Positions 12,650-48,929 of a DNA stretch of 64,000 nt are shown piece after piece. Position 1 is the first letter of the stretch. Each line of letters opens with the position of its first letter. Origin of the DNA: Waterburya sp. (GTDB lineage Bacteria; Cyanobacteriota; Cyanobacteriia; Cyanobacteriales; Xenococcaceae); NCBI GenBank assembly GCA_965217895.1, contig CBDCJV010000002.1:4768001-4832000 (forward strand). Reading direction: 5' to 3'. The position numbers and the translations under genes were made by a program. The notes below the pieces were generated by a model. That model worked only from the letters and a program-made list of their open reading frames with translations. It searched no databases and was not told where the DNA came from.

Positions 12650-13159
12650 TTAAACAGAAACTTCGCTGAGTTGACTATTCATATATTCAAACGGCTCGTC
12701 AATAAAGCTAGTATTCTCAATTCCTGCTTCTGATGCCATTTCTTTGAGCATATCACTCATAATTTTGATTCCGACTACAGTAGGTCCAATAGGCACACCC
12801 AAAGAATTATAGGTTTCTCGTAAACCCTGCAATACTCTTTCGTCTAGGACATCCATACTGCCAGCTACTAAAGCATAGCTAGCATAGCGTAGATAATAGT
12901 CCATATCCCGCAAGCAAGCCGAATAGCGACGAGTCGTGTAGGCATTACCTCCTGGACTAAGCAATTCAGGAACTTCTTCAAACAGTTTAAGTCCTGCACC
13001 TCGTACAATTGTGGCAGCATTACCACTAATCATTGTCGCTACTGCTACCCTAGCTTTTCCAGAAGTAAAGTAGTCTTGCAGACTATCTATAGCATTACGG
13101 TCTAAATAACGACCTGAAATGTCGTAATTTTTTATTAGGTTGGTAACTGCGTCACGCAT
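12650..13159 (-). CDS. apcF: Allophycocyanin beta-18 subunit
   Basis: MRDAVTNLIKNYD...GGNAYTTRRYSACLRD; 169 aa. Confidence 0.95.
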   Translation of the reverse strand: MRDAVTNLIKNYDISGRYLDRNAIDSLQDYFTSGKARVAVATMISGNAATIVRGAGLKLFEEVPELLSPGGNAYTTRRYSACLRDMDYYLRYASYALVAGSMDVLDERVLQGLRETYNSLGVPIGPTVVGIKIMSDMLKEMASEAGIENTSFIDEPFEYMNSQLSEVSV

Positions 13160-13366: not shown

Positions 13367-13569
13367 GCGATTCAGCGCGGTCTTGCGAGAAAGGACTTGT
13401 CCGCATCTGAGTCCGTTGCGGTGAAGCAGTTGCGTTGGGCGGGTTTCCCGACTTGAGTAAACTGCTTCACCCGAAGGGAGATTCCCTCCCTTGAAGGAAC
13501 TGTCGAGGGCGGGGTTTCCCCCATGAGCGACTGAATCAACAAAGGCTTAAGCCGCATGTAGCGATTGCT
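13367..13569. repeat. Nested cluster of small structured dispersed repeats
   Basis: Two 21-nt elements (13388-13408, 13539-13559), a 46-nt family copy on the minus strand and a split gggggaaacccc element. Confidence 0.85.
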
Positions 13570-13712: not shown

Positions 13713-15887
13713 ATGGGATACGAATCTCGCACTCAAGCAATCTACCAAATTACCGAACGCGAACCAATTCTTGCTGAACCCCCTAGCCGTTTAGAAGATA
13801 TTTGGGCAGCAGACGTTTTTAGCTTAAGTAAAATGAAACAGTGCTTACCTAAAAATGTCTTAAAATCTCTAAAAAAAACGATTCAAGCAGGGGAACAATT
13901 AGACGTTTCCATTTCTGACATGGTGGCATCGGCAATGAAAGACTGGGCTATTTCCAAAGGTGCTTCTTACTATGCCCACGTTTTTTATCCGATGACTAAT
14001 GCCACCGCCGAAAAGCATGATGGATTTATATCTGTTCAAAGTGATGGCAGCGCGATTTCCGAATTTGCAGGCAAGCTATTAGTACAAGGTGAACCCGATG
14101 GTTCGTCCTTTCCTAATGGTGGTATTCGCTCTACTTTTGAAGCCAGAGGCTATACAGCTTGGGACGTAACTAGTCCTGCTTATCTAATGGAAACAGATAA
14201 CGGTGTGACTCTTTGCATTCCCACTGTATTTATCTCTTGGACAGGAGAAGCCCTAGATAAGAAAACTCCTTTATTGCGTTCTATTGGCGCAATGAATAAA
14301 GCAGCAAACAAGGTACTTAAATTACTAGGTCACACAGATATTGCTCCTGTTAATTCTAGCTGTGGCGCAGAGCAAGAATATTTCTTAGTAGATGCTCATT
14401 TTGCCAATAGCCGTCCAGACTTACTATTAGCTGGAAGAACCTTATTTGGCAAGCCCCCTGCTAAGGGTCAGCAGTTTGACGATCATTATTTTGGCGCAAT
14501 TCCTGAGCGAGTTCAGGTATTTATGCAGGATGTAGAAAAGAAAATGTATCGCTTAGGTATTCCTGCTAAAACCAGACATAATGAAGTAGCTCCTGGACAG
14601 TTTGAAATCGCACCCTTTTTTGAAGCAGCTAACGTCGCTTCTGACCATCAACAGTTAACTATGACACTGTTGCGTCAGACTGCCAAAAAGCATGGTTTTG
14701 TCTGTTTGCTACATGAAAAACCCTTTGCAGGCATTAATGGTTCTGGTAAGCACGTCAACTGGTCTGTAGGCAACGAAACTCAGGGCAATCTACTAGATCC
14801 TGGTGACTCTCCCCATGAAAATGCTCAGTTTCTTGTTTTCTGCGCTGCGGTAATTCGCGGGGTACATAAATTTGGTCCTTTGATGCGGGCCGTAATTGCC
14901 AATGCCAGTAACGATCATCGTTTAGGCGCAAATGAAGCACCTCCCGCAATCATGTCGGTTTATCTGGGTTCTCAATTAGAGACTTTGTTTAACCAAATTG
15001 CCACAGGAGAAATAAGTGACAACTATAGCCACAAAGGAGAAATGCGAATTGGAGTAGATACTTTACCACCTCTGTCTAAAGATGCTGGCGATCGCAATAG
15101 AACTTCTCCCTTTGCCTTTACTGGCAACCGTTTTGAGTTTCGTGCAGTTGGCTCGGGTCAGTCTGTTTCAGGGCCATTAATTGCTCTTAATACTATGCTG
15201 GCAGATTCGCTTAACTTTATAGGGAATCTTCTAGAAAGTGAATTAGAAAAAGGAACAGATCAAAACGCTGCTATTTTGACTGTCCTCAAAGACATAATGC
15301 AAAAACACGGTGCAGTTATTTTTGGTGGCGACGGCTACTCTGCCGAGTGGCACAAAATGGCAGTAGAAGAGAGAGGTTTGCTTAATTTACCTACTACTGC
15401 TGATGCCCTCCCTTACTTGAAAGAAAAATATATTGAAGAGCTATTTGAAAGCACAGGAGTTTTATCCCCTGTAGAATTAGAAAGTCGCTACGAAGTATAT
15501 TCTGAGCAGTATGTTCTCTCTATCGAAGTTGAAGCCAAGCTAGTGATAGACATGGCAAAAACCAGTATTTATCCTGCTGCCATGAGACATTTAGCTGACA
15601 TTGCTGGTACTGTGGCGGGTTTAGAAGAGATGGGCATCAGTCTCGCTCCAGACAACATTAAAAAAGTCGCGGAGTTGACTAACTCTATGATGTCTAAAGT
15701 GGCTAAGTTAAGTTCGGCTTTAGAAAAAGAAGACTTTGGCAACACTGAAGAACACATGAAATATTGTGCTGAGACTATTCGTCCGATGATGGATAGCGTC
15801 AGAGAGGACGTTGATGCCTTGGAAAGCGAGGTTGCTGATGACTTATGGCCTCTACCTACTTACCAAGAAATGCTATTTATTAAGTAG
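13713..15887 (+). CDS. glnN: Glutamine synthetase type III
   Basis: 724 aa; [52 protein letters not shown]. Confidence 0.97.
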
Positions 15888-15916
15888 GCTTTTTGTACAA
15901 ACAATTGTTCATTACC

Positions 15917-16147
15917 TAGGGCGTGTCATCAATTGAGGGGAAGAATGCTTTTGCAGCGTATTTTAGCGAGATACAAGAAGAAAAATGTTCTGCATAGCAG
16001 GGCTACGGAGGTTATTTTTCGACGCAGTAGGTCGTTAAAAGGCGAGCGACCCCGCGTCGCCGACAGGCGCAAGACAAAGGCTTTAGCCGCATGTACGCGC
16101 GAGCTAGACCAAAAAAAGCTCTTTTTTTTAATTGATGACACGTCCTA
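15917..16147. mobile_element. MITE with 18-bp terminal inverted repeats carrying nested small repeats
   Basis: tagggcgtgtcatcaatt ... aattgatgacacgtccta (1 mismatch); no transposase. Confidence 0.8.
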
Positions 16148-16198
16148 AACTAAGAGGTAAAATATCAACCTTTGTAAATCTGGTCTAAGTTACTTGAC

Positions 16199-41096: not shown

Positions 41097-41395
41097 AAGT
41101 AGCAGATAGCAAGTAGCGCAGCCTGGAGGCTGCCGACGTTGCTCCGCAACGGCGAGACGCGAAGCGCGTCTGCAAGTTCAACCTCTGCCTGAAGTCAGAC
41201 AAAGGGCTTGCCCGCATGTATTCAATTCTTGAATTATTCTTTTATCTTTTCCTCATGAATAAGGAGGCTTTAGACCAACTTCGGAGTTTTCTTAATTGCT
41301 ATCTGCGCGAACTGGAGTTCGCCGACTGCACTTTGTGCAGGCGAGCCGCTCCACGCGGCTTCTACTTGCTACTTTAACTCCGAAGGAGTTGGTAA
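41097..41395. repeat. Cluster: two 56-nt triple-hairpin elements and a 21-nt element in heptamer runs
   Basis: 41118-41173, 41199-41219, 41307-41362. Confidence 0.85.
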
Positions 41396-48417: not shown

Positions 48418-48450
48418 CTAACCGATATCGCAGTACGTTGATTGGTTAGC

Positions 48451-48867
48451 GGTGCGACCCCCTAAAGGGTTCAGCAGTTTGACGGGCGACATAAACGCCT
48501 TTTCGGGCGGTCAACATTCTGGGGAAACCCCACGAGGGCGATTATTCAAGGCGAACTAAATTCGCCGAATCTCGCCCTCAGAATTACGCCCTCAGAAACC
48601 ACAGGCGACGCGCCCTCCTTATGCCAGGAAACCCTTTCGACACTTTGCTCAACGGGTCATAGACCCGCAACGCAAGTGTCTCACCACCGCAACTGCTTCA
48701 CCGCGTCGGCGGTAAGAGGGCAGACCCTGCGCCGCCGTCAGGCGCGTCTTGAAAAAGTTGTTCATGGGGGAAACCCCCAAGACCACACTTTTTCGCAAAG
48801 GAACGCTGCCCTAGCAAGGGAATGCTGACTTAGCAAGAGTAAGGACTTGTCCGCAACTACGCGCACC
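48451..48867 (+). repeat. Large multiply nested structured-repeat array
   Basis: Scaffold pieces gcgacccc / cgcgtcg / gccgtcaggcgc / caaaggaacgc separated by hairpin inserts; closed by ggtgcg/cgcacc. Confidence 0.85.
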
Positions 48868-48929
48868 AAGACAGGACAGAAAAATGAACTGCTCGTAAGT
48901 AACAAGTAACTTGATGACTGCTCACCGCC

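Follow-up and report, generated by a model that had tools for sequence, protein, structure and literature searches.

An SDR-like 21-nt hairpin element limited to one cyanobacterial genus probably replaces three bases at its target

The window analysed here, a stretch of 64,000 nt from a Waterburya sp. genome, holds between 12650 and 18009 the glutamine synthetase gene glnN and, downstream of it beyond a MITE-like element, an ammonium transporter gene; a divergent phycobiliprotein gene, apcF, lies upstream of glnN (Table 1). A pile of repeats fills a single HIP1 site between apcF and glnN, and in three relatives (L105-L107) the place of this pile is taken by plain GCGATCGC, i.e. HIP1. Two copies of the 21-nt element described here lie in the pile; the other three copies in the window are intergenic too, nested in larger repeats. 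Throughout, G000 is the genome that carries the window (5.29 Mb, 39% GC, 5,880 HIP1 octamers), other G numbers are congener genomes and L numbers are the loci compared.

Table 1. Copies of the element, the repeats that host them and the flanking genes, in window coordinates.
Feature	Position	Strand	Description
Element copy 1	13388..13408	+	outer AGA/TCT, inner GGAC-TT-GTCC; empty form AGA
Element copy 2	13539..13559	+	ACA/TGT, GGCT-TA-AGCC; empty form AGA
Element copy 3	16074..16094	+	ACA/TGT, GGCT-TT-AGCC; common host site GCAAG[GGA]ACGCGC
Element copy 4	41199..41219	+	ACA/TGT, GGGC-TT-GCCC; AGG in paralogous empty site
Element copy 5	48838..48858	+	AGT/ACT, GGAC-TT-GTCC; in GCAAG^ACGCGC
Host of copies 1 and 2	13367..13568	+	nested short palindromic repeats on a 51-nt HIP1-associated unit, net about 194 nt
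Host of copy 3	15916..16148		MITE-like, 19-nt imperfect terminal inverted repeats
Host of copy 4	41097..41374 (ends approximate)		repeat composite bounded by inverted heptamer runs
Host of copy 5	48449..48889 (ends approximate)		long palindromic-repeat composite upstream of an ARC6/Ftn2-like gene (Pfam)
Flanking gene	12650..13159	-	phycobiliprotein (Pfam); apcF is an interpretive label
Flanking gene glnN	13713..15887	+	glutamine synthetase type III (Pfam)

A sequence-only reading of the window had picked out five 21-mers built to one plan. All five lie where it placed them, on the + strand, and they are the sole matches to its descriptor on either strand of the window. Run against the whole genome, as that reading had proposed, the descriptor finds 74 matches, compared with 11, 4, 4, 5 and 10 in five block shuffles, and 67 of the 74 are members of one family. 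Its formula is A-NN-AA-GG-apex-CC-GCA-N'N'-T, 21-24 nt long, with about 100 copies in G000: a broad pattern yields 102 matches (82 of 21 nt, 8 of 22, 10 of 23 and 2 of 24), a total that may include a few chance matches, and 99 chromosomal sites are recovered with at most two mismatches. Because members of 22, 23 and 24 nt exist (20 of the 102), preservation of the reading frame is not a defining constraint of the element. Rfam has no match within the window.

Both stems pair and do so by compensatory change, as claimed: 99% of cells pair in 17 distinct variants, which are hand-picked and related, a selection that favours pairing. Twelve bases are invariant in these variants (A1, A4, A5, G6, G7, T10, C14, C15, G16, C17, A18 and T21), and two-sided changes are seen at four pairs (2-20, 3-19, 8-13 and 9-12); the inner stem therefore has 4 bp and a 2-nt loop. 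The AA/GCA internal loop of the sequence-only reading stands, and its four-base terminal loop does not: the variable apex is the 4-bp stem with its 2-nt loop, and the loop-closing Y-R pair, which had been placed in the loop, covaries. The same 17 chosen variants reach a covariation score of 0.61; shuffles reach 0.16, and slid partners no more than 0.06. Among 77 strict-pattern matches in G000, pairs 8-13 and 9-12 are each intact in 76, and the outer stem in 66. Across the family the fixed parts are the outer stem, AA-GG and CC-GCA, with the apex free to vary; the 22-24-nt siblings retain A-NN-AA-GG and CC-GCA-N'N'-T and have a changed apex. Outer- and inner-stem variants combine almost freely. 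The evidence for structure is covariation and not stability, since the folding energy of the element is no better than that of shuffles (z -0.7 to +0.9). With RNA parameters both stems fold, on the + strand only; with DNA parameters the inner stem alone does. In the match lists of all genomes, the commonest decay of the element seems to be GCATGT to GCATAT or GTATGT (positions 17 and 20), a pattern that would fit cytosine methylation of an RCATGY site.

Comparison of filled with empty sites argues strongly that the element is mobile and that it replaces exactly three target bases, for a net gain of 18 nt and without duplication; we regard this as very probable. Paralogous empty analogues within G000 show a 3-nt gap at 19 of 19 sites. 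When 105 filled sites of other genomes were examined for an analogue in G000, the gap was 3 nt in 21 of 22, and a looser search, covering 154, found the rule to hold in 36 of 46 contexts. The strictest search (290 filled sites, 30+30-nt flanks) recovered 34 with an empty homologue. The gap most often seen at a site was 3 nt for 28 of these, 10 nt (three bases and one more heptamer unit) for 4 and 4 nt for 2, and it was 0 for none. A 23-nt sibling obeys the same rule. Clean filled/empty pairs between genomes are provided by a hicB-like ORF that has gained six codons in G049 through the element, by an intergenic site in G055 (L187) and by L013 and L077, both of them unique sites; a further pair is an IS605-type element whose right-end hairpin is empty in G043 (L250) and filled in G039 (L252). 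The frame-keeping 21-nt insertion of the sequence-only reading thus survives in part: the net gain of 18 nt still preserves the frame and copies in frame do exist, and what happens is not an insertion of 21 nt but a replacement. Both ends are exact, with no 5'-truncated cores found outside near-full copies.

The triplets replaced are purine-rich and mostly R-G-R, with a central G in 29 of 36. Over 153 distinct contexts across genomes, the base after the triplet is A in 72% and G in 22%, T at -1 is rare (3%) and A at +3 is rare; eight loci are left out of the context and triplet tallies, six from non-cyanobacterial records and L053 and L099 as doubtful. This tabulation of flanks, which had been suggested at the outset, gives a weak target of not-T, then R-G-R, then R, and the element always has one orientation to it. 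Flank information reaches at most 0.31 bit on the left, and on the right there is only the A/G preference at +1. Eighteen of the contexts hold more than one variant, some differing by decay alone; L167 has different variants at one orthologous site, and copies 3 and 5 are, as had been noticed, different variants filling one target, GCAAG^ACGCGC. The element lands in other repeats, IS ends, genes (in frame) and its own copies, where it nests up to three levels deep at AGA or AGG followed by A.

Several other accounts of the junctions were tried and rejected. The outer stem is not derived from the target, because copies that start with ACA replace several unlike triplets (GGA, AGA, AGG, ATA and others). 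If 18 nt were inserted in a different register, only AGA copies at AGA targets would be explained, and GGA and AGG targets would not. A blunt swap of a hairpin triloop would need -1/+1 pairing, and T at -1 stands at 3% against 72% A at +1. Targeting of hairpins was dropped as well: 29 of 55 contexts lie in repeats against a 26% background, which becomes 44% once GC-matched, and the folding energy of the targets in these 55 contexts equals that of the GC-matched background. As to a possible self-guided choice of target, base 2 of the element is associated with flank positions +1, -2, +2 and +5 (best p 8e-5) among contexts that are related, and no pairing rule is seen.

The composite between apcF and glnN can be taken apart with the help of relatives. 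At the site of copy 1, L220 is empty and L227 has a 24-nt sibling in the same place; L236 has the 51-nt host unit without copy 2, and the unit occurs alone elsewhere. In the G030 ortholog of 13367-13568 (L104) the left edge is joined to the 3' tail of copy 2, and the pile has collapsed by deletion between two short AGC matches, which shows one way for such repeat piles to be lost. Parts of this host match Nostoc and related plasmids, but the 21-mer itself does not. Whole composites also differ between sequencing runs: contigs of two other runs skip 15915-16171, and in all 4 of 14 runs show whole-composite skips, with no removal of a single copy among the joints listed. No RNA data set is among the sequencing runs listed as holders of the sequence.

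Thirteen of the 99 sites in G000 lie inside called ORFs, some of them spurious products of a simple ORF caller. Ribonucleotide reductase, a P-type ATPase, Hen1, CobN and a glyoxalase-GST protein are among the open frames that contain the element and are supported by Pfam. The gene for the ribonucleotide reductase alpha subunit (G000:C2:3089441-3091933, L375; L381-L385) carries in-frame repeat composites at one site, of different lengths in G000, G056 and G030, with shorter forms in relatives and no insert in G049, G055 and G037. In this way real genes (hicB-like, ribonucleotide reductase, CobN and an intron reverse transcriptase) gain stretches of peptide in frame from the element and its hosts. 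In IS605-type elements (L248-L252, L325) the apex of the right-end hairpin is variable, and the element is inserted in G039 and G022. In G049, pairs of copies separated by 1182 bp gave the impression of a transposon with the element at its ends; they proved to be two copies of a roughly 620-bp repeat in one transposase-like gene. This repeat, heptamer-rich and element-bearing, occurs twice in that gene (L134/L135, G049:C1:104300-106200), and the doubly inserted unit recurs about seven times in G049.

The element is limited to one genus and nearly absent from the other cyanobacteria searched. The strict pattern occurs in 35 of 38 congeners (Waterburya/Pleurocapsa-type) with 0-148 copies per genome, and, with 1-3 copies, in 5 of the 22 genomes examined from the rest of the family. 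Sixty copies or more are present in G000, G030, G035, G037, G049 and G054-G056, and 0-1 in G023, G027, G029, G032, G043 and G044. In 401 genomes of the phylum, single matches occur in five that do not belong to the genus, about the level of the reversed control. With a looser pattern in 301 genomes of the order, five congeners including G000 give 94-205 matches, and genomes outside the genus at most 19, with controls reaching 21. A scan of all genomes found at least 92 loci, and the 80 listed carry the names of Waterburya, Pleurocapsa, Pleurocapsales, loosely named cyanobacterial bins and six non-cyanobacterial singletons, with no Nostocales among these 80. Two matches on viral contigs come from one coding stretch with an unpaired outer stem and were taken as chance.

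A gene that might mobilise the element was sought by neighbourhood and by co-occurrence. No gene family recurs beside it among 915 nearby ORFs. Across the 29 genomes that are at least 90% complete (ten below 90% were excluded), copy number is tracked neither by Y1 matches (rho -0.32, p 0.09) nor by reverse transcriptase matches (rho 0.26, p 0.17), nor by two types of RAYT. G056 and G030, with 78 and 67 copies, have no PF01797 match at E<=0.001, and G023, with 0 copies, has 18; G037 has 148 copies and 2 weak reverse transcriptase matches, and G023 has 22 of the latter. Eighteen RAYT loci contain 0 copies of the element and other GTAG REPs instead. In G000 itself one RAYT type is frameshifted and one is of another type, both flanked by unrelated GTAG REPs: at L253 (G000:C2:2354797-2355300) an E. 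coli-type RAYT gene has a frameshift after codon 108 and long-loop GTAG REPs on either side, and at L254 the second type has a REP inside its coding sequence. A stand-alone reverse transcriptase of 528 aa near G000:C2 1233146 (L263), unlike the intron proteins, is possibly of the defence type.

A group II intron is present in three near-complete copies of one family (L258-L260, at G000:C2:35431-37645, 274042-276231 and 2699816-2702008), each sitting in a roughly 50-nt hairpin repeat and each with the same element variant 14 nt into its 3' exon; in G049 and G030 both intron and element are missing from the orthologous host hairpins. Since the G000 loci carry both and the orthologs neither, the element moved with a unit mobilised by reverse transcriptase at least once. 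The arrangement suggests that 3'-exon sequence was transferred together with the intron, at one site and not as a general mechanism. Orientation shows no bias with respect to transcription in G000 (tandem intergenic 22 vs 24, ORFs 7 vs 6). A replication-strand bias in the pooled sites of four genomes (p 0.01; the first 100 of 119 sites for G049) is gone at single-copy contexts in G000 (p 0.62), and the clustering by strand along chromosomes stems from multi-copy hosts.

As a candidate mechanism we propose, tentatively, that this gene-less hairpin of 21-24 bases could be moved as a folded single DNA strand by an HUH (Y1-type) enzyme encoded in trans. The enzyme would bind the AA/GCA internal loop of the folded strand and cut the hairpin out at the base of the outer stem; one strand of the target would be nicked twice, three bases apart, the hairpin joined in place of the triplet, and the copy fixed by replication. 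By geometry the terminal base pair would span about three single-stranded nucleotides, and this would explain the constant loss of three bases. To our knowledge, characterised Y1 enzymes (IS608, TnpA-REP) need a guide tetranucleotide and delete no target bases. An enzyme that recognises single-stranded DNA is favoured by the strict polarity, the exactness of both ends, the invariant mismatch loop and the orientation indifferent to transcription; the HUH class in particular is favoured because it binds imperfect single-stranded hairpins strand-specifically and because the E. coli TnpA-REP, according to the accessible text of PMC8266576, requires an AA-GC bulge. The C-TT-G apex also resembles that of the Pseudomonas REP given in PMC3116915. 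Against the HUH enzyme count the outcome of the gene search, these properties of the known Y1 enzymes together with the absence of a conserved tag flanking the element, and the loss of any replication-strand signal once multi-copy hosts are set aside; moreover, that RNA parameters fold both stems on the + strand and DNA parameters the inner stem only leans toward RNA and against single-stranded DNA.

That leaning bears on an unlikely alternative, in which the hairpin is first copied into RNA and then enters the target by reverse transcription. A nuclease would cut both target strands at nicks three bases apart, the second lying upstream, and target-primed reverse transcription would lose the triplet, much as 2 bp are lost by some R2 retrotransposons. 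As RNA, the + strand forms both stems where the - strand does not, CUUG is a known stable RNA loop, and the three introns of G000 carry the element in their 3' exons. Yet the intron case is one site with one variant and fits hitch-hiking, both junctions are exact, a sense bias to transcription is absent, and the reverse transcriptase counts given above, those of G037 and G023 among them, fail to follow the copies. A different recombinase, whether a tyrosine-type enzyme acting on folded strands as at integron attC or an IS110-like one, might swap the hairpin for the triplet. An outer stem, an unpaired spacer, an inner stem and a variable apex do recall a folded recombination site in miniature, the element is joined exactly at both ends, and none of the four enzyme classes tested fits; but copies starting with ACA replace GGA, AGG and ATA, so that element end and target have no common core, and two binding sites for a recombinase need far more than 21 nt. 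We consider this improbable.

Equally improbable, in our estimate, is that no dedicated enzyme takes part and that the hairpin is filled into nicks or gaps by host repair or by template switching, with covariation arising from fold-back copying between the arms. The failure to find a partner gene would agree with this, and the near-free combination of outer and inner stem variants could be a product of fold-back correction or conversion; a constant three-base loss with fixed polarity at non-homologous sites is, however, not expected from repair, and fold-back correction should erase the AA/GCA mismatch, which is invariant. Passive amplification of a few old insertions by larger host repeats has very little chance of being right. 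It has in its favour that 63 of 108 sites in G000 lie in multi-copy contexts and that most orthologous differences involve a whole composite and not the 21-mer alone. As the whole story it is largely refuted by the 45 sites in single-copy contexts, by the 153 contexts across genomes and by stand-alone gains in unique DNA, seen where genomes 89-93% alike over the aligned stretches are compared; it explains part of the copy number, and the element does spread further as a passenger of larger repeats and IS ends.

Returning to a trans-acting enzyme, there is some chance, though we think it doubtful, that the element represents a distinct minimal "swap-in" class, in which a novel enzyme would read a folded 21-nt strand by its AA/GCA loop, accept any apex and exchange the strand for three bases at almost any R-G-R followed by R. 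If true, its chemistry would be unlike cut-and-paste, peel-and-paste or retrohoming, and it would potentially amount to a programmable writer of small inserts. The element is likely among the smallest jumping DNA elements. The constraints on it are sharp: both ends are exact, 12 bases do not vary while the apex may, three bases are lost, the target is weak but defined, and the range is a single genus with 0-148 copies per genome. Comparative genomics should therefore be able to find the mobiliser, and a 21-mer oligo would allow it to be tested. The accessible parts of three papers that cite the SDR work (PMC4390886, PMC5861425, PMC3116915) leave open by what means repeats of some 20 nt move. 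Neither a description of the element nor a match to its core 15-mers was found in the literature searched, which leaves most subscription papers outside its scope, and the available portions of PMC6006769, PMC3733652, PMC2703918, PMC2884548 and PMC8580901 do not describe it.

The element is a very small, structure-conserved repeat of mobile type and of the SDR kind; the sequence-only reading had proposed comparing it with the Nostoc SDR4, SDR5 and SDR6 folds. The SDR1-8 families of Nostoc punctiforme and relatives, from Elhai et al. 2008, are reportedly 21-27 nt long, dispersed and present in many copies; their structure is said to be kept by compensatory change, and they reportedly occur in heptamer repeats and minitransposons and nested in themselves, with the mobiliser unknown. 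The element resembles them in length (21-24 nt), in dispersal (102 broad-pattern matches in G000), in its compensatory stems and in its embedding in heptamer repeats, minitransposons and itself. According to the accessible text of PMC5861425 there are no SDR-like repeats outside Nostocaceae, whereas the element belongs to a Waterburya/Pleurocapsa-type genus. For SDR5, the part of PMC4390886 available to us places the insertion directly after the third base of HIP1, whereas the element targets R-G-R followed by R. In 100 kb of N. punctiforme plasmid DNA there are 0 matches to the descriptor, and the 21-nt HIP1 inserts of this plasmid, which we infer to be SDR5, lack the AA/GCA loop and have a fold unlike that of the element. 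G000 has a separate family of 15-21-nt inserts that interrupt HIP1 after its third base (a 15-nt form accounts for 8 copies; L227) and that are SDR5-like, outside Nostocaceae. Identity with a published SDR family, against which the earlier claim had been staked, thus does not hold for SDR5: target and fold differ, the plasmid inserts lack the loop and G000 has its own HIP1-insert family. Identity with SDR4 or SDR6 is unlikely, judged from host range. The three-base rule may already be known from the 2008 study of Elhai et al.

Among better characterised systems, non-autonomous elements of the IS200/IS605 type have two hairpin ends and enter on the 3' side of a set motif of 4-5 nt, with every base of the target retained, whereas the element is one hairpin with no separate left and right ends, has no 5' motif of 4-5 nt and costs the target three bases. 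The two are alike in lacking terminal inverted repeats in the DDE sense and target duplication, in their fixed orientation and in hairpin recognition, as far as the available text of PMC6006769 describes the family. From a DDE-type MITE, with terminal inverted repeats of at least 10 bp and a target duplication, the element differs in having ends complementary over 3 bp and in losing bases. The group 2 REPs of the E. coli TnpA-REP (RAYT) system, as portrayed in the accessible part of PMC8266576, have an imperfect, strand-specific hairpin with AA opposite GC under a short G-C-rich upper stem, and the element too is an imperfect, strand-specific hairpin with a short G-C-rich upper stem; its 2x3 AA/GCA loop is similar but not identical to the AA-GC bulge. 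It is 21 nt long against 29-37, single and not in doublets, and it replaces three target bases; both the 5' GTAG tag and an adjacent RAYT gene are absent. SDRs are an already known kind of repeat, and within that kind the element is a genus-limited, SDR-like micro-element with a sharp 21-for-3 replacement rule.
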